Shown here piece by piece: positions 3,871-60,098 of a stretch of 63,696 bases of DNA (the stretch's first letter is position 1; every line of letters starts with the position of its first letter). A program made the position numbers and the translations under genes. The stretch comes from a virus. Its lineage: Duplodnaviria > Caudoviricetes. The DNA lies in the IMG/VR virus record IMGVR_UViG_3300049167_000064, positions 1 through 63,696 of that record. One strand, 5' to 3'. The notes beneath the pieces were generated by a model. The model had not been told where the DNA came from, made no database searches, and saw nothing but the letters and a program-made list of their open reading frames with translations.

Positions 3871-3945
3871 GGTCTCGTAGCTCAGCCTGGATAGAGCACC
3901 GGACTACGAATCCGGGTGGCGGAGGTTCGAATCCTTCCGGGACCA
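3871..3945 (+). tRNA. tRNA-Arg(ACG)
   Basis: Cloverleaf, anticodon arm CCGGA-CTACGAA-TCCGG, GGTTCGAATCC T arm. Confidence 0.93.
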
Positions 3946-4018
3946 CGTCAGGAACGGCACCGAGAGCGTATAGCGGTCGGGGTGCCCCGGGGCAGGGGTG
4001 ATGCGGTTCGCCTGCCGA

Positions 4019-4100
4019 CGTCGCGCGGTGTGAGGCAGTACACGCGCGCCGAAGAGCACACCCGGCGGTGTAATCGTGGGTTCAAATCCCACCGCGACGT
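4019..4100 (+). ncRNA. Atypical tRNA / pseudo-tRNA with 11-nt anticodon loop
   Basis: Acceptor CGTCGCG/CGCGACG, T arm GTGGG-TTCAAAT-CCCAC, anticodon stem CGCCG/CGGCG around AAGAGCACACC. Confidence 0.65.
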
Positions 4101-4103
4101 CAA

Positions 4104-4175
4104 GCCCCTGTAGCTCAGCGGAAGAGCGGCGTCCTCGTAAGACGCGGGTCACAGGTTCGAATCCTGTTGGGGGCT
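4104..4175 (+). tRNA. tRNA-Thr(CGT)
   Basis: Cloverleaf, GCGTC-CTCGTAA-GACGC anticodon arm. Confidence 0.93.
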
Positions 4176-4270
4176 CTGCTGTGGCGGTGCCCTGGGGCAG
4201 ACCGGGAGCTGCATAGAGGTCGTGGCCTAGCGGCGCGACGGCCGACACCCGGGCCTCACGGTCCGGACGA

Positions 4271-4341
4271 ATGGGCGTAGCTCAGTGGTAGAGCAGCGGT
4301 CTCCAAAACCGCCCGCGGAGGTTCGATTCCTCCCGCCTGTG
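4271..4341 (+). tRNA. tRNA-Trp(CCA)
   Basis: Cloverleaf, GCGGT-CTCCAAA-ACCGC anticodon arm. Confidence 0.92.
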
Positions 4342-4450
4342 CTTTCCGACGCTGACGCCTCCGCTCCGGAGGTCGGGTGAGCCTGATGCCTGTCACGAGG
4401 CGGACGGCGGGCCGAAGCGGTGCGTGACGCCGTGGAGGAAGGCAGCACAT

Positions 4451-4522
4451 TCCCCGTTGGTCCAATTGGCAGGACGCCAGGCTCTGGACCTGGAGGACGA
4501 GGTTCGAATCCTTGACGGGGAG
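4451..4522 (+). tRNA. tRNA-Gln(CTG)
   Basis: Cloverleaf, CCAGG-CTCTGGA-CCTGG anticodon arm. Confidence 0.92.
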
Positions 4523-4595
4523 CCGGTCGGGCGGTGTGTCCCAAGTCCGCAGGAGAAGAGCTCCGGAGTGCCGTAAAGGAGCGACCCGACCACAC

Positions 4596-4668
4596 CGGGA
4601 CGTAGTTCAGAGGTCAGAGCACCCGCTTTGGGAGCGGGGAGTCGGAGGTTCGAATCCTCCCGTCCCGA
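4596..4668 (+). tRNA. tRNA-Pro(TGG)
   Basis: Cloverleaf, CCCGC-TTTGGGA-GCGGG anticodon arm. Confidence 0.92.
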
Positions 4669-4762
4669 CAAACGACGAGCGCCCCCGAAGCTGTACACAT
4701 CGGGGGAGCTCAGTTCTTTACTCTACGCCCCGACGTCCGGGGTCCTACCCCCTGGAGTCAAA

Positions 4763-5141: not shown

Positions 5142-5289
5142 AGCTATTTCCGGAGGCGCCATGGCTCGCATGCTTCGAGCCCGCGCGACGGTTGTCCAGT
5201 GGGCCAGCGCGACGTACGCCTACGACGTGACGGGAAACCTTCGCGCACGCGAGGAACGCGCATGGCGACGCGAGTGGGGCGCGGACGAG

Positions 5290-5901
5290 CTACTTCGGCA
5301 GCTTGATCGTGAACAGCGGTCCCGTAGCTTCGGGATCACCGCTCCCGCCGTAGCTGACGATGCCACCTCGTCGGGCGACGTCCAGGATCATGGATCCCGT
5401 GACTGATTGCCCTGGCTTGTAGGTGGTGTCGAGATCCGGACCGTCACCGACGCCTTCGAGCGTCGTGGCGTCCTGAGCGGCTGTCTCGTCGTCCTCCCAC
5501 TGCATCACTCCGTAGCCCGCGAATTCGGCTGGAGCCTGACCCACGTTCTTCAGCGTGAGCGTCAGCTTCACGAACTGACCGTGTTCCGGCTCGTTCGACG
5601 TGTTGATCTCAGCCGGCGTCACGTACTTCGCGCTGACGACGGTCACTTGCAACTTCGACGTGACCTTGAAGTTCTCTCCGTACTCGTCCGTCTCGCCCAC
5701 GTCGAAGGAGCCCGTCTCCCCGACGCTCAGCGCGGGAACGGGGGCTGCGGAGGACGTCGCTTCCGACGGTTCCGGAGACGCCTCCACAGACGATTGCGGC
5801 TGCGGGCTGGCGTCCTTTTCTTCGCTCCCGCTGGAGCACCCCACCACGAACAAAGACAGCACCACGGCCGGCACCACGGCACGGCGAATGTAAGCGCACA
5901 T
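5290..5901 (-). CDS. Lipoprotein, DUF4352-like Ig-fold (moron)
   Basis: Lipobox LFVVGC, Ser/Pro/Glu linker, LTLKNVG and KPGQSVTG motifs; start codon uncertain. Confidence 0.75.
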   Translation of the reverse strand: MCAYIRRAVVPAVVLSLFVVGCSSGSEEKDASPQPQSSVEASPEPSEATSSAAPVPALSVGETGSFDVGETDEYGENFKVTSKLQVTVVSAKYVTPAEINTSNEPEHGQFVKLTLTLKNVGQAPAEFAGYGVMQWEDDETAAQDATTLEGVGDGPDLDTTYKPGQSVTGSMILDVARRGGIVSYGGSGDPEATGPLFTIKLPK

Positions 5902-11588: not shown

Positions 11589-12378
11589 CCGGCAGTACGG
11601 GACGGCTGTACGCGGCGTATGGACTTCGGTCCTGGGTCGCGTCAGCCGGTCGTGGACTGATCTGGGCTCGTGGCGCGGGGAGGACGTCGACCGCTTCCAG
11701 CGCAAGGCGCTCCCGGTCCTACTGGCCGGCCAGCGACAGGTTGCCTCCCTGACGGCCACCTATCTCGAGACCCTCTACCGCGAGATAGCCGACGAGCGGT
11801 CCCGCGTAGACCTGGACTTCGACACGGTCACCGGCCGCGCACTGCGCGACGTCGACCCCGAAGAGGTCTACGAACGGCCCTTCAAAGAGGTCTGGAACGC
11901 ACTCTCCAACGGTGAGCCCCTGGACGTGGCGCTCGAGCGTGGCGCCCATCGTCTCGACACCATCGCGAAGACGGATTTGCAGCTGGCCAGGACGCGCACC
12001 GTGCGAGAGGTCACCGCAGACCAGCCGGGCGTGGAGTACACGGTCCGGGAGCTCCAGGGCGAATACGACTGTGCGCTCTGCATGATCGCGTCCACGCAGC
12101 GCTACCACAAGAAAGATCTTGCGCCCATCCATCCCGGGTGCGACTGCCTCGTCAAGACGGTCCGGTCGGACTACGACCCGGGCCAGGTCATTGATGAAGA
12201 GCGCCTAGACCAGATTCACGACCTCGTGGAAGAGGCGCTAGGTAAGGCGGACCGCGGAGGACGCGCCGTCGACTACCGAAAGATCATCATTGCCCGGGAC
12301 CACGGAGAGATCGGTCCCGTACTGGGCTACCGGGGACAGCGGTTCACCGGCCCCGATGACATTCACCTTCCGACCTGA
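11569..12378 (+). CDS. Minor head / capsid maturation protein (MuF-like)
   Basis: CALC...PIHPGCDC; between portal and scaffold. Confidence 0.75.
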   Translation: MTLTRLDRQYGTAVRGVWTSVLGRVSRSWTDLGSWRGEDVDRFQRKALPVLLAGQRQVASLTATYLETLYREIADERSRVDLDFDTVTGRALRDVDPEEVYERPFKEVWNALSNGEPLDVALERGAHRLDTIAKTDLQLARTRTVREVTADQPGVEYTVRELQGEYDCALCMIASTQRYHKKDLAPIHPGCDCLVKTVRSDYDPGQVIDEERLDQIHDLVEEALGKADRGGRAVDYRKIIIARDHGEIGPVLGYRGQRFTGPDDIHLPT

Positions 12379-50821: not shown

Positions 50822-51213
50822 CGCCCGCACTAGGACGCTCAGCAACGGTTGTCCGCACGGTGGCGCAAACCCGCCTGCCCACCGTGCGGTCCGTGGCTCG
50901 TCCCACGCGCATCACGCCTCCGCTTCGGCCCCCGGCGCCTCCTGATGGCCCGTCGCATCGTGACGTTCTGCGACGGTGGGAGGAGCTGGAGTGGTACTCC
51001 TGTACCTACTGTGACGCCTCGTTCGGCCCGATGGTTGTAGCGGAGGTGGACCACATCCGTCCGCTTGCGAAGGGCGGATGTGATGAGTGGGCGAACCTGG
51101 CGCCGGCATGCCGCGACTGCAACCGACTCAAGTGTGATCTGGACATGTCGGATTGGCTGGCGATCCTCGCAGGTCAGTTGGATGCGGAGTGCGACGTACC
51201 GGTTACGCGCTGA
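50818..51213 (+). CDS. HNH endonuclease
   Basis: CTYC...VDHIRPLAKGG.D..ANLAPAC..CN..K. Confidence 0.85.
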   Translation: MTPALGRSATVVRTVAQTRLPTVRSVARPTRITPPLRPPAPPDGPSHRDVLRRWEELEWYSCTYCDASFGPMVVAEVDHIRPLAKGGCDEWANLAPACRDCNRLKCDLDMSDWLAILAGQLDAECDVPVTR

Positions 51214-51292
51214 GACCGACACCCCCGAAAAGGGGTACTCACACATCCTTCACATGTAACGGTTTGGTCACGAGGATTGCTTGAAGTCTGCA

Positions 51293-51338
51293 TTGTGTCG
51301 GTCGACATAACCGCAGGTGAGATAGGTCGGCCGACACA
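51293..51338. promoter_or_regulatory. Two GTCGG(C/T)CGACA operator-like boxes
   Basis: TTGTGTCGGTCGACATAA and GTCGGCCGACACA; same box as class A promoters. Confidence 0.6.
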
Positions 51339-51437
51339 GCTATTGACAGCACACACGTCCTACGTGCCCGCGAAAACCACTCAAAACGACCCATAGCACC
51401 GACGGTTATCAGCCGTCAGGCAATTGCCCGTGGAGGT

Positions 51438-51812
51438 TTGGTGACCTACAGTCCTGAACACGTCGCAGATGGACAGCGACTGACGCAGCTTCTTACCAAG
51501 CTCGAGCACGAGCTGACAGAGCTTCGTCAGATGGTGTCGATCTACGAAGACGCAGTAACCATGCCGGGCCGCCGACGGTCCGGAGTGGATGCGGACGGAA
51601 CTGGCCGGCAGGCGACGCACGGACCCTCCCGCCCGACGGAGCGCATCGTCCTTGACGGGGCACGCGGAGCGCTTCAGCGAGAACTCAACAGCGGCGCTGC
51701 GCAACTGCCCTACGCAGTGGCGGTAGTTCGCGGCGTCATCGCATCTATGGATCGAGCTCTCTCCCGTTGGGAAGGGGAGGACGAGGTCCAGGCTCCCGGG
51801 GGGCTGCTTTGA
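51438..51812 (+). CDS. Hypothetical protein
   Basis: GGAGG RBS, GPSRPTE motif. Confidence 0.7.
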   Translation: MVTYSPEHVADGQRLTQLLTKLEHELTELRQMVSIYEDAVTMPGRRRSGVDADGTGRQATHGPSRPTERIVLDGARGALQRELNSGAAQLPYAVAVVRGVIASMDRALSRWEGEDEVQAPGGLL

Positions 51813-52030
51813 TCATTCTCATCGGGCCGCAGCTGACGGACGACGAAGACGGAGAGCTCGACGAGCTGGCCGGCTTGCTCGGAGCTCACCGTATGTGCGG
51901 CCCTGACGTCGACTGGGCGTCGGTTACCAAATTCGTATGCGTCCCCGGCTGGGAGAAGTGCCCGGCTGCAGTCGCGGACGTCGACATGGCGAAGGTGTTC
52001 GGTCTGCCGATCGAGCAACTCCAGCTCTGA
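51809..52030 (+). CDS. Small protein, DUF4406-like fold
   Basis: PGWE...A...A..FGLPI; TTGA coupling. Confidence 0.55.
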   Translation: MIILIGPQLTDDEDGELDELAGLLGAHRMCGPDVDWASVTKFVCVPGWEKCPAAVADVDMAKVFGLPIEQLQL

Positions 52031-52033
52031 CAT

Positions 52034-52051
52034 CCGCTAGTCGACTAGCGG
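52034..52051. repeat. Dispersed palindrome
   Basis: CCGCTAGTCGACTAGCGG right after a stop codon. Confidence 0.85.
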
Positions 52052-52188
52052 AGCGATAGCCCCCGTACCCGACACGGGACGGGGGCTTCGTCGTCCCCAT
52101 ACGCGCGAGTAACTAACGCGCCCATTGAAACACAGGCCAAAGCTTCCGGCAAGGGTTGCCTAACTCAAGCGGTGTGGCCTGCGTCACA

Positions 52189-52231
52189 AAAGTCCCGCGT
52201 CACATCTTCCCGCTAGCACCCCATAACTAAG
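52189..52231 (+). promoter_or_regulatory. Class B phage promoter motif upstream of the sigma-like gene
   Basis: AAAGTCCCGCGTCACA-N10-AGCACCCCATAACTAAG. Confidence 0.75.
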
Positions 52232-52261
52232 TCACACGAAGCATTCACGGAGGAGAACGAC

Positions 52262-53017
52262 ATGACCCCGACGCAGGTTACGAACGAGCTCATCATCTCG
52301 GCGCAGGGTGGAGACAGTGACGCGATGTGGCAGATCGTCGACGCCTACGAGGGCGTTCTCCGCCACGCCGTCCGCTCCGTCGCTCCCTCCGCCAATCAGG
52401 AGGACGCGGAAGACCTCCTCCAAGAGGCACGCGCGGTGCTGATCCAGCACGTCCGCGACTACCGCACCGACGGCAGTCCTGCGCAGCTGAGCACGTTCGC
52501 GCACCACACCATCCGCCGTACCGTGGCGGAGGCGTGGGTCCGCACTTCCTGTGCGCTGTCCGTCGACCCGACGACCGCACTTCGCGTCAAGCGTGCGCTC
52601 TGGACCACGGAGGGCGACGTCGACGGAGCGTGGATGATCGTCTCCTCCGACGCCAACTCGAAGCGCAGGCTGTCCCGGGAAGTGTTCCTCGCGACGGTTG
52701 AGGCCATGGCGGACGTGGACTGCCTGGACGCTCCGGCCGGCGAAGACGGTCTGACGCTCGCGGAGGTCATCCCGGACGCGGACTCCGACTTCACCGACCC
52801 GACGGAGCGCCGGGAGCTGGCCCGCTACCTCCTCCGCGAGATCCCGCAGCGCCAGGCATACGCGCTCCGGGCGTTCTACGGAATCGGCATGACGCAGATG
52901 CCGGACCACGACGTCGCGGCCGATCTGGAGCTGAAGCTCGTCGCTCTTCGCCAGCTGCGGGCGCGCGGCGTCAAGTACGCGCAGAAGGTTGCAGCCTCCC
53001 AGGCACTGGCTGCGTGA
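52262..53017 (+). CDS. Sigma-70 family RNA polymerase sigma factor
   Basis: AQGGD..A, DAEDLLQEA (region 2), LDAP, region 4 HTH-like C-terminus. Confidence 0.82.
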   Translation: MTPTQVTNELIISAQGGDSDAMWQIVDAYEGVLRHAVRSVAPSANQEDAEDLLQEARAVLIQHVRDYRTDGSPAQLSTFAHHTIRRTVAEAWVRTSCALSVDPTTALRVKRALWTTEGDVDGAWMIVSSDANSKRRLSREVFLATVEAMADVDCLDAPAGEDGLTLAEVIPDADSDFTDPTERRELARYLLREIPQRQAYALRAFYGIGMTQMPDHDVAADLELKLVALRQLRARGVKYAQKVAASQALAA

Positions 53018-53048
53018 GTCACTCACTTACCAACGACAGGAGCAAGCC

Positions 53049-53195
53049 ATGTCCCGACTTCCCTCTCTCGACGACTACGACGTCCAGGGCGTCCGCACCT
53101 CCGAAGCCGCCATGTGGGGCGACGACGTCCGCTACGCCGTGGAGGCGCTGCAGGACGCGGACCTCTTCGACGGCTTCCACATCGAGACCGACTGA
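53049..53195 (+). CDS. Small acidic protein
   Basis: AGGAG RBS. Confidence 0.6.
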   Translation: MSRLPSLDDYDVQGVRTSEAAMWGDDVRYAVEALQDADLFDGFHIETD

Positions 53196-53198
53196 CCT

Positions 53199-53216
53199 CC
53201 GCTAGTCGACTAGCGG
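53199..53216. repeat. Dispersed palindrome
   Basis: CCGCTAGTCGACTAGCGG. Confidence 0.85.
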
Positions 53217-53243
53217 AGCTACCCACGACCATGAGGAGAGAAT

Positions 53244-53993
53244 ATGTCTGAGTACGTAGCCACGTGCACCGCCAGCCGCCACGACACCATCACCGCTGTA
53301 GGCGACGGAACAACCATCGAGCTCGCTGCCCGCTCCCACGGAGAGCGCAAGATGGAGACCTTCCTCTCCGCGGACAAGGCCCGCACCTTCGCGCGCGGCA
53401 TCCTGGCCCTGGCCGACAGGATCGACGGGGGAGAGGAGAAGGGCGAGGCGGAGTTCAGCGACACGCCCCCCGTCGGCACGCGTGTCCGCGTACTGGAGGC
53501 GTCCGGCATTCCAGCGGCCCGGGGAATGCTTGGCACGGTCTACGACCTCACCGACCAGCCGGGACGCCTGAAGGTGCTGATGGATGAGCCGTGGGACGGC
53601 TTCGGCTATCACAAGGTTTACGCGGACCGGTGGGAGATCGTCGACGAGCCGGCGCGACCCGTCAAGGTTGGGGACCGGGTGCGTGTCGTGCGGAACGCCT
53701 ACGACTACGAGGACCGTGGCTACGTCGGCCGCGTTGGCACCCTGAAGGTCATCGACACGGATGAGCAGCCGTACAGGGTGACCTTCGACGACGATGACTA
53801 CTGGTGGTGTGCGGAGGTCGAACTCGTCGACGAGGCACCCGACGCCGTATCGGCCCCGGAAGCGCCCGCCGTCGACAAGCCGGCCGACGAGCGCGAGACC
53901 TTCATCCGGCGGGCCGCGGACCTGGCGTCGGAGCTCGAGATCTTCGATGACAACGCCATCGTCTCGATGGCCCGCTTCCTGGCGGGGGAGTGA
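53244..53993 (+). CDS. Hypothetical protein with SH3-like repeats, C-terminus MARFLAGE
   Basis: Paralogous to 41427 and 53990 products. Confidence 0.75.
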   Translation: MSEYVATCTASRHDTITAVGDGTTIELAARSHGERKMETFLSADKARTFARGILALADRIDGGEEKGEAEFSDTPPVGTRVRVLEASGIPAARGMLGTVYDLTDQPGRLKVLMDEPWDGFGYHKVYADRWEIVDEPARPVKVGDRVRVVRNAYDYEDRGYVGRVGTLKVIDTDEQPYRVTFDDDDYWWCAEVELVDEAPDAVSAPEAPAVDKPADERETFIRRAADLASELEIFDDNAIVSMARFLAGE

Positions 53994-54292
53994 CGATGGC
54001 TGACATCAAGATCGGTGACCGGGTGCGGATCGTGTCGGAGTACACCGACCGTGCTGGCCGGCACGTAGGTCGGCTGGGTTCCGTGCGGCACGTCGACCCC
54101 GACGACCGCGAACTCCGTTACAGCGTCCTCATGGACGGCGACGAGGAATCCGATTGGTTCCATGAGGTGGAACTCGTCAGCGGGGTCGCGAATCGTGAAG
54201 CGCATGTCACCCGCGCGAAGGAGCTCCTGACGGGCACTCCGCACACGGTGGAGGACATCATCCGCATGGCCCGCTTCCTGGCCGGCGAGTAG
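53990..54292 (+). CDS. Paralog of the C-terminal half of the preceding gene
   Basis: IKIGDRVRIV...EVELV...MARFLAGE. Confidence 0.75.
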   Translation: MTMADIKIGDRVRIVSEYTDRAGRHVGRLGSVRHVDPDDRELRYSVLMDGDEESDWFHEVELVSGVANREAHVTRAKELLTGTPHTVEDIIRMARFLAGE

Positions 54293-54333
54293 GACGACAG
54301 GGCCCGGGGCGCTTGCTCCGGGCCCTTCGTGTT

Positions 54334-54394
54334 GCTCCGCTAGTCGACTAGCGGAGCTAGGGGGTTGTGTCGGCCGACCAATGTGTGTCATAGT
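54334..54394 (+). promoter_or_regulatory. 24-bp palindrome plus class A promoter
   Basis: GCTCCGCTAGTCGACTAGCGGAGC, then TTGTGT-N18-CATAGT with GTCGGCCGAC box. Confidence 0.75.
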
Positions 54395-54431
54395 GGAGAT
54401 CCGCCAGGGACTAACGGAACTGGCGGAACAA

Positions 54432-54641
54432 CTCAACAGGGAGCGGCAGCAAGGCGAGAACGACTCTGGTGGAGTCAAGAGGCGCCCCGTAAGGGAGACG
54501 TCGCAACGGCGTGCTGGGTAAGAACCTTGGCAGTCACGGTGACCCGTAGCCCATACGGTAGGGCAGGGTGTGGCTGGAGGGATGGATACTCCAAACCAGG
54601 CTGAGGACATGAATCGCTAAGCACCACCGCTCCCTGTTGGG
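54432..54641 (+). ncRNA. Candidate ~210-nt structured RNA
   Basis: 15-bp closing helix 54432-54446/54627-54641 enclosing several hairpins. Confidence 0.65.
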
Positions 54642-54676
54642 GACTCCACGGACAGGCCGAGACGAGGGAGCCGTCA

Positions 54677-55051
54677 ATGAGCTACCAGCGGGCGCACCGC
54701 TACTGCGGCGGAAAGGGTGAGGTGCCCCGGGCGTCCGGTATCCCTGGCTTCTGCTTCGCATGCAACGGGACCGGAAAGATCACCGTGTACACCGCAGCCG
54801 AGAAGGCTGTTCGACAGGCTGAACGTAGCCGGTGGGACTCCACCCGAGAGCTGGTGCGGTCCCACGCCCGGAAGATCACGGCCCCTGACGGTGTGCCTTC
54901 CCTGACGTTCTCGCTTGACGTCCGCGCCGGCTTCGAGACGCTGGCCGAACGAGAGCCAGACCGCTTGGAGAAGTTGTACGCCTCGTTGGACGCTGGCCGT
55001 ATCGACGACGTCGTTTATGCCCTGTACGAGTACCGCAAGGGTCACGCGTAG
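54677..55051 (+). CDS. Hypothetical protein with DnaJ-like CxxCxGxG motif
   Basis: GGGAG RBS; CFACNGTG. Confidence 0.75.
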   Translation: MSYQRAHRYCGGKGEVPRASGIPGFCFACNGTGKITVYTAAEKAVRQAERSRWDSTRELVRSHARKITAPDGVPSLTFSLDVRAGFETLAEREPDRLEKLYASLDAGRIDDVVYALYEYRKGHA

Positions 55052-55112
55052 CCGAAACGCCCTCCGGGGCGTCGGGTGAGGAATGGTCTCCCACCCCTGA
55101 CGAGGCAGACCA
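55051..55112 (+). ncRNA. Type II hammerhead ribozyme 1 (predicted cleavage after C55073)
   Basis: GCC-GAAAC-stem III-GTC-stem I-CTGACGA-GGC; loop TGGTCT pairs with downstream AGACCA. Confidence 0.88.
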
Positions 55113-55123
55113 CTGGAGGAGAG

Positions 55124-55288
55124 ATGAAGGTCAAGGCGATGAAGCGGACGTTCCTCCGGACGCACCGGTTCGGGATGTTGCGCCAGGCGGACGAGAAGCG
55201 CAGGGCCGGCGCGGAGCGCAACGTCCGCAGCCCGCAGGGGCGGGAGCTGATCGCGTCGAACATGGTCTACCGCAAGCGCTACGCGTAG
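55124..55288 (+). CDS. Small basic protein (54 aa) between ribozymes
   Basis: GGAGGAGAG-ATG. Confidence 0.7.
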   Translation: MKVKAMKRTFLRTHRFGMLRQADEKRRAGAERNVRSPQGRELIASNMVYRKRYA

Positions 55289-55350
55289 CCGAAACGCCCT
55301 CCGGGGCGTCGCGCGGGAGATGGCCTCCCGCCCCTGATGAGGCAGGCCGT
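55288..55350 (+). ncRNA. Type II hammerhead ribozyme 2 (predicted cleavage after C55310)
   Basis: GCC-GAAAC-stem III-GTC-stem I-CTGATGA-GGC; loop ATGGCCT pairs with AGGCCGT. Confidence 0.88.
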
Positions 55351-55360
55351 AGGAGGAGAG

Positions 55361-55657
55361 ATGGGAGCAACACCGAGAATGACGGCACTGGAGTCGGCAC
55401 GCGTGCAGAAGATCATGGATGGCGTCCGAGGCATTCCGGACCCTGACCACGAGCACGACCTCAACCCCGAGCACGCCGTCTTCGACGCTGACGGCGCGGT
55501 GTTGCAGCGCGGCATCTCTGACGAGTACGCCGCGCAGGACGCCGCCGAGACCTGGCGCACGACCTACTACCGTCCCGACGCCTGGTCCGGAGAACTCTGC
55601 AACGACTACCGCGACCACCCGCGCGAGGTCTGCGGCGAGCATCACGAACTTGGGTAG
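55361..55657 (+). CDS. Hypothetical protein (98 aa)
   Basis: GGAGGAGAG-ATG. Confidence 0.7.
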   Translation: MGATPRMTALESARVQKIMDGVRGIPDPDHEHDLNPEHAVFDADGAVLQRGISDEYAAQDAAETWRTTYYRPDAWSGELCNDYRDHPREVCGEHHELG

Positions 55658-55665
55658 CGAAGTCC

Positions 55666-55742
55666 GCCCCGCTACGGCATCGCCCGATCTACCCGGCACC
55701 CCCAGTGCCGGCGGGCGCGCGGTTCGAATCCGCGGCGGGGTA
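55666..55742 (+). ncRNA. D-armless tRNA-like element
   Basis: Acceptor GCCCCGC/GCGGGGT, U8-A9, T arm CGCGG-TTCGAAT-CCGCG. Confidence 0.7.
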
Positions 55743-55775
55743 CTCGAAGCACCATCCATCGACGGAGAGGACGTC

Positions 55776-56054
55776 ATGACCTCCTACCTTCGCAACTGCG
55801 CCGGATGCGGCGGATCGTTCGCCACGGGCGACGGCGTCTCTGACTCGTACTTCTGCCCGAAGTGCCACAAGGGCAACGTCGAAAAGTTCGCCCCGAAGGT
55901 GTCCAACGTCGTCGAGTTGCTGAGTCAGCCCCGGAGCCGGTACGTCGTGCTCGCGGTCGACGAGGGGGAGTTCACGATCCGCCGGCTTGGGTTTCCGGAG
56001 GGCCCGACCCTAGCGGTGCGTGAAGCACACCTGAACCCCGCTGTCTGCCGCTGA
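55776..56054 (+). CDS. Zinc-finger hypothetical protein
   Basis: CAGC...CPKC; GGAGAGG RBS. Confidence 0.7.
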   Translation: MTSYLRNCAGCGGSFATGDGVSDSYFCPKCHKGNVEKFAPKVSNVVELLSQPRSRYVVLAVDEGEFTIRRLGFPEGPTLAVREAHLNPAVCR

Positions 56055-56066
56055 AGAGGAGCCATC

Positions 56067-56413
56067 GTGCGCAGCAACCCCAATGACGCCGCCATACGCG
56101 CAGCCTTCGACCGCTTCCACGCGACGTCGACGACGAACCGCAAGAGCGCCGTCTCCCAGCTCCACACCGACATGAAGAAGGCCGGCGGCCCGGTGCCGTC
56201 GAAGGAGGAGGAGAAGTGATGGACAAGTGGCAGCACCGTGACGCAATCGCGGCTGCAATCAGGGCCGCCCGAGCCGACGGATTCGAGGTCGACATGGAAA
56301 ACCCGTGCTGCGGCTGCGTGGACACGCGGCTCCAGATCAATGAGCCCTTTGAGCCGACGGAAGACGTCCGGGCGTGGTCAGACGGTGCCGTCGAAATTTT
56401 GAGGCAGGTGTGA
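56067..56413 (+). other. Two small hypothetical genes (56067-56219, 56219-56413)
   Basis: RBSs and overlapping stop/start. Confidence 0.6.
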
Positions 56414-57030
56414 TGATGAGCCGTCCCTCTCGCCTCCCCTTCCGCGCGGCCCTTGTGTCCGCCTCCGTCGCCACTGTCGCGGCCCTGGCCGTCACCCTGA
56501 CGACGTCCGCGGACGAGGCGCCCGACGCCTGGCCGTCGATGGGGACCGTTCCCGTCGTGACGGAGGGGATCTCCTCACCGTCGCCCTACCGGCCGGAGCC
56601 GCATACCACGAGGGCGGGGGAGCGGACGAAGCTGACGCCGTCCCCGTCCCCGACGGAGCGGGTCGCGAAGCCGAAGACGACTCCCGCGACGAAGCGCCCC
56701 ATCGCGAAACCGCCGACGGACATCCGGATCACGTACTACCGCAACTGCACCGGCTTCGCTCAGTCCTGCATCGACGACGGCCACCTAACGATGTACGGCG
56801 GGCGCATCCTGGCCGGCCACAACTACATGGGCTATCAGTGGCTCTCCCGCGTCGCCGTCGGACGCACCGTGCGCGTCATTGACGGACCTTTGGCGGGGAC
56901 GTACCGGGTCTACGGGCACATGAGGATCACCCGGCAGGGAGGCGCAATCCCTGACTTCGGGGGAGCGGCACTCGTGCTGCAGTCGTGCGAAGGAAGCGGG
57001 ACGGGATTCTCGCTCCTGAAGCGGGTTTGA
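56413..57030 (+). CDS. Membrane-anchored/secreted sortase-like protein
   Basis: N-terminal hydrophobic segment, Pro/Thr linker, ILAGHN and LVLQSC motifs. Confidence 0.55.
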   Translation: MMSRPSRLPFRAALVSASVATVAALAVTLTTSADEAPDAWPSMGTVPVVTEGISSPSPYRPEPHTTRAGERTKLTPSPSPTERVAKPKTTPATKRPIAKPPTDIRITYYRNCTGFAQSCIDDGHLTMYGGRILAGHNYMGYQWLSRVAVGRTVRVIDGPLAGTYRVYGHMRITRQGGAIPDFGGAALVLQSCEGSGTGFSLLKRV

Positions 57031-57038
57031 CGATGGGG

Positions 57039-57069
57039 GTTGTGTCGGCCGACACAACTGTGTCATAGT
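57039..57069 (+). promoter_or_regulatory. Class A promoter with perfect 20-bp operator
   Basis: GTTGTGTCGGCCGACACAAC; TTGTGT-N18-CATAGT. Confidence 0.8.
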
Positions 57070-57115
57070 GAGCCACGCCAGGGACTTACGGAAGTCCAAA
57101 GGAAGAGGAGACATC

Positions 57116-57793
57116 ATGAAGGCCATCGACGACATCACCCGCACTGCGGAGGACGCGCTTTACGAGGGCTTCGACTTCGGTTACGACGAGCGCCCGCTCG
57201 TCGCGGGGGAACTGGGCGCGGGCGTCCTGGCCCCGATCGACGGGGAGCGGGAACCCTTCGACGACACGGAACTCGTGAACGCGGTCGACAAGCCCGACTG
57301 GTTGGTCGCGGCCGGCTTCTGAGCCGGTCATCTGGAGCCCCTGCCAATTGCGGAGGCGGGGGCTCCTCCTCCTGAACCACTTGGCACTGACGAAGGAGTC
57401 AGCCATGGAAACCACACCCTTCATCGTCCAGGACGTCACCGTCGACGCGATCAACATCCTGGCCGGCGACGTCTTCGAGCGTCACGGCAAGACGTGGACC
57501 GCCCGTTTCAACGCCCGCCACTCCGGCCGCTGGACGGCGATCGTCATCACGGAGACCGGAACGGTCTGGCTCTCCGTCGACGACGAGATCACCGTTAAGC
57601 GCACTGTGAGGAGGCGCCCGTGTTCCGCGTAAGCTTCGAGTGGGGCGGCTCGACCCTCGTCGACGTCGTGGCCTACCGGTGCTTCATCCGGGAGGCGTAC
57701 ACGAAGGGATGGCCGCGGACGAAGGTCCCTCGTGGATACGTGGTGACGCTCCCCTCCGGCCGGCTCGTCGCGCTGCTGAAGGAGCTCCGCTAG
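57116..57793 (+). other. Three small hypothetical genes (57116-57322, 57405-57632, 57620-57793)
   Basis: RBSs; the last stop codon lies inside the palindrome at 57787-57804. Confidence 0.65.
57334..57366 (+). terminator. Hairpin with AATTGCGGA loop
   Basis: GGAGCCCCTGCC/GGCGGGGGCTCC. Confidence 0.7.
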
Positions 57794-57854
57794 TCGACTA
57801 GCGGAAGTTGTCGGCCGATGCCTCTTGTGTCGGCCGACACAGCTATGTCATAGT
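57787..57854 (+). promoter_or_regulatory. Palindrome plus class A promoter
   Basis: CCGCTAGTCGACTAGCGG; TTGTGT(57825)-N18-CATAGT. Confidence 0.78.
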
Positions 57855-57888
57855 GAGGGCAACGCAAGGGACTGACGGAGGAGAGACC

Positions 57889-58530
57889 ATGAAGCGCGAG
57901 ACCTACAAGGGCCGGAACATCAAGGTCGTCAAGGGGCGGGGCGCCGACCTCGGCCACACGCGTATCGTCCTGAACGGAGTCGAAATGGGCTCCTGGCTGG
58001 GCGACGAGGACGAGGCCCTCCGCTCCACCCGCGGCACCATCGACCACGCGGACGAGGTCGGAGCCGGCAGCGGCCGTTACGGCGCTGAGTGGTACGCCCC
58101 CGGTACGTACGAGCTTTGCGACGAGGGTCACCCGAAGGAGATCGGCGGAGAGTGCGGACACCACTGGTGCGTGGCGCAGTGCGCCAAGGCCGCTCCCGTC
58201 GTCGACGAGGCGCCGGCAGAGGTGACGGACACCGTTGACACCGACCGCTACGAGCGTGTCTCGCTGGACGACCTGAAGAAGGGCGACCTCATCATCCTTC
58301 CGAACGTGATGATCGGCGGCAACGTAGCGTCGTGGGGAGGTCGCAGTTACACCGTCGACCGCATCGAGCACCGCGCCCCGGGCGTCGTCTTCATCTGGCG
58401 ACAGGCAGACGACCTTCCGCCGAAGTCGACGATGGACCGCTTCATGATGGTGTGTGGGGACCGCGTCCCCGCGGGCGTCCTGCGCGTGAAGCCGGCGCCC
58501 GTGGCCGTCCCCGTCGAACTCACGGCCTGA
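57889..58530 (+). CDS. Hypothetical protein
   Basis: GGAGGAGAG RBS. Confidence 0.75.
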   Translation: MKRETYKGRNIKVVKGRGADLGHTRIVLNGVEMGSWLGDEDEALRSTRGTIDHADEVGAGSGRYGAEWYAPGTYELCDEGHPKEIGGECGHHWCVAQCAKAAPVVDEAPAEVTDTVDTDRYERVSLDDLKKGDLIILPNVMIGGNVASWGGRSYTVDRIEHRAPGVVFIWRQADDLPPKSTMDRFMMVCGDRVPAGVLRVKPAPVAVPVELTA

Positions 58531-58538
58531 ACCACCCT

Positions 58539-58571
58539 GGAGCCCCTGCGAATTGCGGACGCAGGGGCTCC
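58539..58571 (+). terminator. Hairpin with AATTGCGGA loop
   Basis: GGAGCCCCTGCG/CGCAGGGGCTCC. Confidence 0.7.
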
Positions 58572-58613
58572 GCTGCACAAGTTACTCACGATCATGCACA
58601 CGAAAGAGGAGCC

Positions 58614-59285
58614 ATGGACCGGCTGAAGCGCCTGGACCCCATTTTGATCCAGGCCGTCATTGCGGCGGCCCTGTCGTTCGCCCACATCCACGACATTGCA
58701 GCGGCGGCCGGCCAGGGCGGATGGAAGGCATGGGCGTACCCGGTGAGCGTGGATCTCCTCCTCGTCGTCGCCTGGCGTCGCATGCGGACGCGTGGGGACG
58801 CTGCGGGATGGTTCTGGTTCCTGACGGCCATGGCTGCGTCACTGGGCGCCAACGTGGCGACGTCCGGGACGATGGACCTGGCCAACCCTCCGACGTGGCT
58901 CCGCGTCGTCGTGGCGGGATGGCCGGCGATTGCGTTCCTGGGTGGAACGCTGCTCGTCCACAGCAACCGGGCGGAGAAGCTGGCCGCGACGGGGGCGCCC
59001 GAACTCCCGCCCGTGGAGCCACAGGAGCCCGCTGGAGAGCCTGCGAAGGAGCCTGAGAAGGAAGCGGACCCGGAGCCACTGGCGGAGCCGGAGGAGGCCG
59101 ACCACGAGCCGTTTCTCGTGAGCTACGCCCGTGCCGCTGAGTCCCTGGACGTTGCCCCGGAGACGATCCGCGGATGGGCCGCTCAGGGGAAGGTGCAGCG
59201 CTACCCGGGACCGACCCCGAAGAGCGTGCTCGTCGATCTGCTCGAGTGCAAGACAGTCAAAAACCGTCGCCTCGTAGGCGCGTGA
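58614..59285 (+). CDS. DUF2637 (SpdA-like) membrane protein with C-terminal HTH
   Basis: ALSFAH.HD...AWAYP.SVD...SLGANV...VAGWP; TIRGW. Confidence 0.8.
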   Translation: MDRLKRLDPILIQAVIAAALSFAHIHDIAAAAGQGGWKAWAYPVSVDLLLVVAWRRMRTRGDAAGWFWFLTAMAASLGANVATSGTMDLANPPTWLRVVVAGWPAIAFLGGTLLVHSNRAEKLAATGAPELPPVEPQEPAGEPAKEPEKEADPEPLAEPEEADHEPFLVSYARAAESLDVAPETIRGWAAQGKVQRYPGPTPKSVLVDLLECKTVKNRRLVGA

Positions 59286-59297
59286 GGAGGAGAAGTG

Positions 59298-59839
59298 ATG
59301 ACATTCAACCCCCTGAAGTACGACGAGGACGAAGCCCGCGGCACTCTGGAGCGTGCTCTCCCGGGTGGTCACATCGTTGACGACGGAGGCGGACTCGTTC
59401 TCTCTGAAGACGCCCTTAACGCCTACCGCAACGCCGTGGAGGCGCGGGTCCGCGACGAGGTGGCGAAGGAGCTCGAGACGCTCCCCACCTTCAACGACGT
59501 GGCCGATTGGTGCGCGCACATCGGCCGACGGCAGGCAATTGACGTCGCCCGTAACGGCCTTCGGAAGAGGACGCGCTAATGCAGTGCAAAGACATTCCGG
59601 ACGACGTCTTCATGAGCGCCGTTCAGGCCGCGCGTGCCAACTCCGCCGGATGGCGATCCAGGTGGGACGTCCACGAGACGCTGAACGAGGCCATGGACAT
59701 CGACGTCCCGGAGAAGCTGCTCATGGCGAAGGCGCGGAAGCTCGAAGCGCGCGAGATCCTCGGAGGCTGCACCTGTGGATGCCGTGGAGACTGGCACCCG
59801 GCGGACGAGTGTCAGCACCGCGGGATGTGCTGTCGGTAG
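59298..59839 (+). other. Two hypothetical genes (59298-59579, 59579-59839)
   Basis: RBS and TAATG coupling; second gene has GCTCGCRGD. Confidence 0.65.
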
Positions 59840-59848
59840 CCACACATG

Positions 59849-59883
59849 AGAGCCCCCTACCCACGCCGGGTAGGGGGCTCTTT
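59849..59883. terminator. Terminator between convergent genes
   Basis: AGAGCCCCCTACCC...GGGTAGGGGGCTCT. Confidence 0.75.
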
Positions 59884-59894
59884 GCGTTGAAGCC

Positions 59895-60098
59895 TCAGCC
59901 CTTCAGGCCGTCGACGAAGACGCCCCACGCGGAGTCGTCGAAGACGATGGCGGGGCCGGAGGGGCGCTTCGAGTCGCGAACCGGCATCGCGCCTGCGACG
60001 CCGTGGGCCACCTCCACACAGTTGTTGTTGCCACCACTGAAGCTGGACTTCGTCCACTCGAGACCGGAGGCGGAAGCGTCGCGGATGATGTGCGTCAT
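59895..60098 (-). CDS. DUF397 protein
   Basis: WTKSSFS...CVEVA...VRDSK. Confidence 0.93.
   Translation of the reverse strand: MTHIIRDASASGLEWTKSSFSGGNNNCVEVAHGVAGAMPVRDSKRPSGPAIVFDDSAWGVFVDGLKG

Follow-up and report, generated by a model that had tools for sequence, protein, structure and literature searches.

The locus and the fold of the element

The window analysed here, meaning the whole stretch of DNA under study, is a complete virus record of 63,696 bases. At 55666-55742 on its plus strand lies an element that folds like a tRNA lacking its D arm, set between two small genes and preceded by two type II hammerheads (Table 1). The upstream gene starts just after the second hammerhead and stops 8 nt before the element; its product has no Pfam or PHROG match. 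The downstream gene has its start codon 33 nt past the element and encodes a protein of 92 aa with a weak zinc-ribbon match. Apart from a peptidase family about 600 nt downstream, the flanking proteins gave no informative Pfam or PHROG matches.

Table 1. Features in and around the tRNA-like element; positions are those of the window.
Feature	Position	Strand	Evidence
Type II hammerhead 1; begins inside the stop codon of the preceding gene (55049-55051)	55050..55114	+	Rfam RF02276, 50.0 bits (gathering 37)
F14, very basic protein of 54 aa	55124..55288	+	ORF; flanked by both hammerheads
Type II hammerhead 2; begins inside the F14 stop codon	55287..55351	+	Rfam RF02276, 47.1 bits
Upstream gene, no assigned function; likely start ATG 55361, stop TAG 55655-55657	55361..55657	+	ORF list, sequence
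5' leader, 8 nt, ending CC	55658..55665	+	family conservation
Acceptor stem, 5' strand (GCCCCGC)	55666..55672	+	sequence, MFE fold
Single-stranded linker in the D-arm position, 9 nt, conserved GG at 55676-55677	55673..55681	+	MFE fold
Two-part long hairpin replacing the anticodon arm	55682..55716	+	MFE fold, compensatory changes
Hairpin outer stem, 5 bp	55682-55686 with 55712-55716	+	MFE fold
6-nt bulge, 5' side of the hairpin	55687-55692	+	MFE fold
Hairpin inner stem, 7 bp	55693-55699 with 55705-55711	+	MFE fold
CCCCA loop, closed by C-G	55700-55704	+	MFE fold
T arm: 5-bp stem (55718-55722/55730-55734), 7-nt UUCGAAU loop	55718..55734	+	sequence, MFE fold
Acceptor stem, 3' strand (55735-55741), and discriminator A (55742)	55735..55742	+	sequence, MFE fold
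Conserved 3' trailer CUCGAAG	55743..55749	+	sequence, family conservation
Ribosome-binding site (55764-55770) and downstream gene, ATG 55776 to 56054, 92 aa	55764..56054	+	sequence, ORF list

In the window element the acceptor stem pairs 55666-55672 with 55735-55741 in seven pairs, of which the terminal one is G-U. Its 3' strand directly adjoins the T stem, a single unpaired G separates the long hairpin from the T arm, and no CCA is encoded after the discriminator. The minimum free energy (MFE) fold is the structure drawn in a preliminary description of this DNA, and the sequence and fold together bear out its claims of a 7-bp acceptor stem, a canonical T arm, the lack of a D stem and an extended stem replacing the anticodon arm. 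The same description also reported U8-A9; this holds for the window only, the linker of the family to which the element belongs reading N-U-A-G-G-C-A-N. The linker is unpaired in both the MFE and the consensus folds and forms no D stem-loop. A 3-bp miniature D-hairpin within it was considered and rejected: 93.9% of its cells pair, but with zero compensatory changes, 500 of 500 shuffles do as well, and its loop of 2-3 nt would be impossible or minimal.

The folding energy of the window element is -44.2 kcal/mol (z = -2.55), a value equalled by 3 of 200 shuffles. Folding energy alone is a modest signal; it is conservation that lifts the element above chance.

An RNA family of Streptomyces phages and prophages

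The element belongs to an RNA family that is absent from Rfam 15 and of which no prior account was found in the literature searched, which included a search by term of PMC10732093. When positions 55300-56100 of the window were compared by blastn with 50,697 cultured-phage records, the sole match was Streptomyces phage Samy, which is 90% identical over the element alone and carries it in an unannotated gap between two small genes. Further loci were sought by pattern scans of IMG/VR and of one genome per prokaryote species, and candidates were screened with a covariance model built in this analysis. The resulting family comprises 41 loci, among which the element occurs in 38 distinct sequences. 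Besides the window and Samy, these loci are 23 contigs from IMG/VR and 16 of bacterial origin. All 41 lie in Streptomyces phages or prophages, and each of the 16 bacterial contigs has Streptomyces in its title.

Members score 54-101 bits with the model, against at most 38.4 bits for true tRNAs in the same searches and at most 36.7 bits for host tRNAs. The model was built from the first 15 members, and the 16 genome loci and seven later loci are independent of it. Ascertainment calls for a caveat here, as three of the search patterns fixed the T arm or the acceptor strand. A fourth left the T stem free; all 18 matches to this fourth pattern carry the same T stem. The T-arm sequence is identical in 39 of 41 members, these 18 loci included.

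Conservation of the fold is evident from a 34-row alignment, in which 95.0% of cells pair and 8 of 24 pairs have changed on both sides, the changes being spread over all four helices. None of 500 column shuffles matched this pairing and covariation, and controls in which the partner strand was slid paired in 36-53% of cells. Compensatory changes affect two pairs of the outer stem and four of the inner stem; the acceptor and T stems are paired in 99-100% of cells across the family alignment. In one alignment, A5, acceptor pairs 1-7 with 76-82 are 99.1% paired, and acceptor pair 2:81 changes from C-G to U-A in one row; L128 also carries GUCCCGC/GCGGGAC. T-stem pair 61:73 changes from C-G to U-A in L095. 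An outer-stem U-A is exchanged for C-G between phages AbbeyMikolon and Nesbitt, which are 94% alike in the aligned stretch. The alignment also contains 18 cells with G-U or U-G pairs, which on the opposite strand would become A-C mismatches; this marks the plus strand as the functional one.

Different parts of the element are conserved in different ways. The primary sequence of the acceptor and T arm is nearly invariant, with the 5' acceptor strand kept at the right distance, and the best conserved portion is the 3' two-thirds. The hairpin is the variable part, and with it the length of the element ranges from 64 to 82 nt. Its loop is conserved nonetheless: counted on the alignments, the motif CCCCCAG occurs in 33 of 41 members (the loop differs in 8 of 41), and a CCCCA loop with a closing C-G pair is retained above a stem that covaries (L108, L112, L006, L101 and L016). 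The discriminator is usually A (37 of 41 members), with U in three and C in one.

Two further sequences came to light near the edge of the family. At 1501-1551 of L122, from the same prophage as L102, lies a shortened relative that scores 29.7 bits. Its AGGAAAGCC linker and its outer stem are those of the family, but a UUCG-capped 3-bp stem takes the place of the inner hairpin, the acceptor and T-stem sequences differ, and the flanks are able to lengthen the closing helix. It is found about 50 kb upstream of the prophage's own element, just 5' of a tRNA cluster. The second is an atypical tRNA-like sequence from the pattern scan, present at 5296-5374 (minus strand) of L030 and in L074, to which the family model gives only 26.2 bits. 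Its parts are a D-arm-like hairpin, an imperfect T stem and, in the anticodon-arm position, a 9-bp stem with the 7-nt loop ACAAACA.

A probable lack of decoding

The element shares with tRNAs (RF00005) a 7-bp acceptor stem, a 5-bp T stem, the UUCGAAU T loop, a length of about 76 nt and a C after the discriminator. Unlike them, it has no D stem, a variable hairpin and no score with the tRNA covariance model. ARAGORN calls a tRNA-Gly(ccc) at 55666-55743; over 11 loci it reports tRNA-Gly in eight and an unknown type in one, and makes no call in two. An Rfam scan, which the preliminary description had proposed as a check, returned no family for the element, either at gathering thresholds in the window or at E<=10 in the 401-base stretch 55500-55900. 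A scan of 51000-60000 at E<=5 reported the two hammerheads and nothing further. The gathering score of the tRNA model RF00005, 29 bits, is reached by none of the 41 members, whereas the five ordinary tRNAs of this phage, at 3871-4669, score 61-67 bits with Rfam.

The loop in the anticodon position has 5 nt, is closed by C-G and has a C in the place of U33, in contrast to the 7-nt loop of a true anticodon arm. The triplet that ARAGORN reads as an anticodon is not constant, differing in L103, L100, L129, L134 and L099, and the varying length of the hairpin is incompatible with a fixed distance between elbow and anticodon. The element is very unlikely to be a decoding tRNA.

Annotation has nevertheless treated it as one. 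The family member of AbbeyMikolon (NC_047904.1, 36207-36280; L126, 2510-2583) is annotated as the phage's tRNA-Gly, while that of Nesbitt (L127), a 90%-identical sister phage, is left unannotated. Pipelines based on ARAGORN can label the element tRNA-Gly, as this one GenBank record does, a recurrent kind of error.

The tRNA region of the window holds a second uncalled tRNA-like stretch, at 4017-4104 on the plus strand, between the genes for tRNA-Arg and tRNA-Thr. It is closed by a 9-bp stem and contains two internal hairpins and a T arm whose loop reads UUCAAAU; its MFE is -43.6 kcal/mol (z = -4.45). It is reported by neither ARAGORN nor Rfam and has no match among the cultured phages.

Comparison with other tRNA-like RNAs

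Mitochondrial tRNAs without a D arm decode, with 7-nt anticodon loops, and tmRNA has a tag reading frame and pseudoknots. We take both the D-armless tRNAs and the tRNA-like domain of tmRNA to resemble the element in having, where a D arm would be, a short single strand with a retained GG, together with an otherwise tRNA-like upper half. By this analogy they would be its closest structural counterparts. The element differs from the former in its 5-nt loop and, very probably, in not decoding, and from tmRNA in that neither ARAGORN nor Rfam reports one; at 77 nt it has neither the tag reading frame nor the pseudoknots.

YrlA, a bacterial Y RNA, is a tRNA mimic found in bacteria and some phages. 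The preliminary description had pointed to tmRNA and the Y RNAs as users of similar domains. As membership of either class this parallel fails: there is no Rfam match and no ARAGORN tmRNA call, and the Ro gene that goes with Y RNAs is missing, TROVE (PF05731) being absent from the 63.7-kb phage and detected in control genomes.

The 6C-type small RNAs of actinobacteria have hairpin loops made of runs of C in a high-GC setting. The C-run loop and the high-GC actinobacterial background are common to these RNAs and the element, and are to be read as a lead only: in the element the loop is carried on a tRNA-like scaffold, and there is no relation to 6C RNAs in sequence or in Rfam.

With respect to function, the nearest counterparts appear to lie outside bacteria. 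In mammals, the mascRNA of MALAT1 is a tRNA-like processing signal, and RNase P cuts at its 5' side. In plant mitochondria, the tRNA-like folds called t-elements (PMC1920247) have been proposed to set the ends of mRNAs by way of RNase P and RNase Z. Like both of these, the element is an incomplete tRNA-like fold embedded in a longer transcript, and by analogy they may be its closest functional relatives; it differs from them in its bacteriophage origin and unrelated sequence. Moreover, the RNA end seen here is on the 3' side of the element, and that of MALAT1 is on the 5' side.

Gene context and exchange with type II hammerheads

The position of the element relative to genes is consistent across the family. 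A stop triplet lies within 3-33 nt upstream in all 34 inspected flanks, and by a strict test 19 of 34 loci have a supported ORF whose end is 6-33 nt (median 7) before the element. Downstream, a start codon with a Shine-Dalgarno-like site is found at 12-38 nt in 26 of 34 loci and a start codon at 82-102 nt in four more; a script found none in the remaining four. In L005, L018, L096, L105 and L129, inspection by eye revealed hairpins after the element instead of a gene start, and several of the loci with a long gap to the next start have hairpins that look like terminators. In AbbeyMikolon and Nesbitt an encoded CCA comes after the discriminator, with a hairpin and a T-run behind it. The immediate borders are also conserved. 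In the leader, C occupies position -1 in 39 of 41 members and position -2 in 31; the discriminator is followed by C in all 41, by CTC in 28 and by the exact CTCGAAG in 16, despite differing downstream genes. Synteny across the loci runs from a conserved upstream block, through a variable run of small genes without known function, to a peptidase gene.

The claim that the element occupies the same kind of slot as the hammerheads was confirmed by Rfam, whose Hammerhead_II model places a match in each of the two preceding intergenic gaps. Across the family there are 26 Hammerhead_II matches in 20 of the 41 loci, counts that are not independent events, the loci being related. All 26 are on the same strand as the element and upstream of it, and none lies downstream, where the flanks scanned run to several kb. 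The element thus marks the 3' end of a hammerhead-bearing gene array.

The relationship between the two devices is clearest at the gene for F14, orthologues of which occur in five other loci with 76-79% identity. Before this gene there is a hammerhead in the window and in L101, but the tRNA-like element in L004, L109 and L017. After the gene, the window again has a hammerhead, whereas L007 and L101 have the element. Beside the same gene, therefore, the two devices replace each other. Hammerhead and element share the same intergenic slots and strand, and both start at or just after a stop codon. In contrast to the RF02276 hammerheads, which self-cleave, the element has no catalytic core and no Rfam hammerhead match, and would need enzymes of the host. 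For hammerheads beside prophage genes, Perreault et al. (2011; PMC3088659) put forward a role in dividing long transcripts, by cutting, into gene-length mRNAs.

F14 itself is very rich in Arg and Lys and belongs to no Pfam or PHROG family. No gene has hammerheads or the element at its sides more often (6 of the 34 loci searched), and a role for the protein as an RNA-binding partner is conceivable. At 11729-11800 (plus strand) of L004, the slot after the F14 orthologue contains neither hammerhead nor element. It is occupied by a distinct branched hairpin that folds strongly (z = -3.97), belongs to no Rfam family and is possibly a third kind of intergenic module.

Transcripts across the element

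Four public RNA runs (X1, X2, X12 and X15) were compared with L010, an IMG/VR copy in which the element, at 5296-5371, and the inspected flanks are identical to those of Samy. Run X15 provides stranded raw reads, 50 in number, and all of its signal comes from plus-strand RNA. The upstream gene is covered to a depth of about 20; across the element depth falls through 12.2, 6.9, 4.7 and 2.9, and it reaches 0.1 at 5364-5392, an interval that spans the element's end at 5371, and 0 over the next ~145 nt. No position passes the threshold for clustered ends. The reads run from the upstream gene into the element, placing the tRNA-like fold within a longer transcript. As reads of up to 150 nt were matched in full and the element measures 76 nt, the reads within it cross its 5' edge, so that 5' cleavage is at best incomplete. 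In this one library, the detectable species is an upstream mRNA that ends in the tRNA-like element, with its 3' end at or near the element's 3' edge.

Contigs from X1 and X2 bridge the 3' edge into the downstream gene (5339-5523 and 5307-5656), and any cleavage there must therefore be incomplete; their holes upstream of the element are uninformative. In X12 both strands are covered throughout, although depth dips at 5219-5363. A free RNA of 76 nt would not be captured by standard libraries, and thus its absence from these data is no evidence either way.

No terminator-like site was called in 55666-55760 of the window, and the trailer CUCGAAG contains no U-tract; the arrangement of an intrinsic terminator, a GC-rich hairpin followed by a U-tract, is not what the element presents. 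The 3' end is thus more likely to arise from processing than from intrinsic termination.

A proposed tRNA-like punctuation module

The minihelix formed by the acceptor and T arm is the part of a tRNA that is read by RNase P, RNase Z and the CCA-adding enzyme. By keeping this minihelix, together with the GG linker and a stacked hairpin, the element retains the shape that host tRNA-maturation enzymes recognise. These tRNA-enzyme features are kept while those needed for decoding are lost, the element lies within a message, an RNA 3' end seen in one library coincides with it without a U-tract, and hammerheads are exchanged for the element. On this combination we favour, at a probability of about one half, a role in punctuating messages or forming their 3' ends: a tRNA-like module that does not decode and is read by the tRNA-processing enzymes of the host. 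The enzymes at work, a cut by RNase P, the addition of CCA and any effect on expression are inferred parts of this view; the phage encodes no CCA-adding enzyme of its own that a search for PolyA_pol could find. A processing signal had been suggested in the preliminary description, and it is supported in part, by the anatomy, the hammerhead parallel and the X15 transcripts ending at the 3' edge; membership of the tmRNA or Y RNA classes is not.

In the proposed mechanism, the element would be transcribed as part of a polycistronic message, as a phage 't-element', with the stacked hairpin taking the place of the column formed by the D and anticodon stems. RNase Z, or exonucleases stopped by the structure, would make an RNA end right after the discriminator, and RNase P could cut at position +1. 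The flanking cistrons would in this way be separated: the upstream message would keep a stable tRNA-like 3' end, while the downstream message would be released or exposed. The element would thereby do what type II hammerheads do in the slots nearby, each being able to stand in for the other in evolution.

Several observations count against this punctuation module. A plain processing signal would need neither a near-invariant CCCCA loop, kept while the stem covaries, nor near-identical acceptor and T-arm sequences. Several members precede hairpins rather than gene starts, and those of AbbeyMikolon and Nesbitt, with an encoded CCA and a hairpin and T-run of their own, look like stand-alone small-RNA genes. 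The RNA data are also thin: the one stranded library, X15, has 50 reads, and the molecules it shows continue uncut across the 5' edge; X1 and X2 contigs span the element's 3' border, and X12 has depth on both strands.

As a tentative second choice, the element may be a gene for a stable, tRNA-shaped small RNA of about 76 nt, excised by RNase P and RNase Z, tailed with CCA and acting in trans. Such an RNA might use the C-rich loop to engage a G-rich RNA or a protein; alternatively, it might serve as a decoy, a role also raised in the preliminary description, or as a sponge, its target being a host factor with affinity for the acceptor ends or the bodies of tRNAs. Cutting of the mRNA would then be a by-product, and since this is compatible with punctuation, both can be true. 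Persistence of the loop above a covarying stem, the nearly invariant acceptor and T-arm sequence, the members that stand before terminator-like hairpins and the encoded CCA of AbbeyMikolon and Nesbitt all fit this idea, as would, presumably, a location in the variable block of small genes, where accessory functions tend to sit. It is weakened by the eight members with a different loop and by the L122 relative, in which the whole inner hairpin is replaced. The anticodon-like loop, moreover, differs too much from a true anticodon loop to mislead an anticodon nuclease, and a trans-acting RNA leaves the exchange with hammerheads at orthologous slots unexplained.

The two functions may be combined, although we are doubtful of it. 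Streptomyces phages would then be using a natural tRNA scaffold: the element would be excised by host tRNA enzymes, punctuating the message, and the invariant, C-rich pentaloop of the CCA-tailed product would act in trans. Its targets could be G-rich or Shine-Dalgarno-like sites, by base pairing, or a host factor directed at tRNA, which the product would bind or divert.

The X15 depth, which drops to zero right after the element, could also reflect a structure-dependent transcription stop or pause, in which a GC-rich three-way junction halts RNA polymerase, and the position of the element at the end of the hammerhead-bearing array, with none downstream, would agree with this. We nevertheless regard it as improbable: the site has no U-tract and no terminator-like call, the start codons at 12-38 nt downstream in 26 of 34 loci leave no room for a promoter, RNA contigs and X12 cover the 3' junction and the downstream gene, and neither a T loop nor tRNA-like geometry is necessary for a terminator.

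It is very unlikely that the element is a working, structurally odd tRNA-Gly(CCC) serving the phage as a glycine decoder. ARAGORN's calls in 8 of 11 loci and the AbbeyMikolon annotation agree on this identity, and G1-C72, C2-G71 and the CCC triplet presumably resemble glycine identity elements. Against it stand the silence of RF00005 even at E<=10, the missing D stem, the 5-nt C-G-closed loop without U33, the variation of both triplet and hairpin length between members, the two loci that ARAGORN misses and the Nesbitt record, which leaves the element unannotated.

The 3' halves of tRNAs are common cores of attachment sites. That the element is a decaying tRNA pseudogene, or a tRNA-derived attachment-site core, without an RNA function is hardly credible: it would suit the concentration of conservation in the 3' two-thirds, but compensatory changes keep all four helices, and the 5' acceptor strand is conserved at the right distance. 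The attachment-core version was also examined directly and rejected: each of two host genomes contains a single copy of the element, with host tRNAs scoring at most 36.7 bits, and the 12-mer repeat of Samy differs from the element. The attachment sites of Samy consist of a 12-bp repeat at the prophage ends, used with a serine integrase, as described in PMC11302927.

Significance

The role of the many hammerheads that lie between phage genes has been an open question since their discovery in 2011. An element that probably depends on host enzymes and takes the place of a hammerhead beside the same gene points to a shared function in separating cistrons or forming RNA ends, and the function of the hammerheads becomes directly testable by swapping them with the element. 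If the dual role were true, one element would serve both as an RNA-processing signal and as a regulatory or counter-defence small RNA. Punctuation by tRNAs is familiar from mitochondria and from a few long RNAs of eukaryotes. If the favoured reading as a punctuation module is true, it would be extended to bacteriophages, and a conserved structured RNA family, new to Rfam, is in any case added to those of the Streptomyces phages and prophages.
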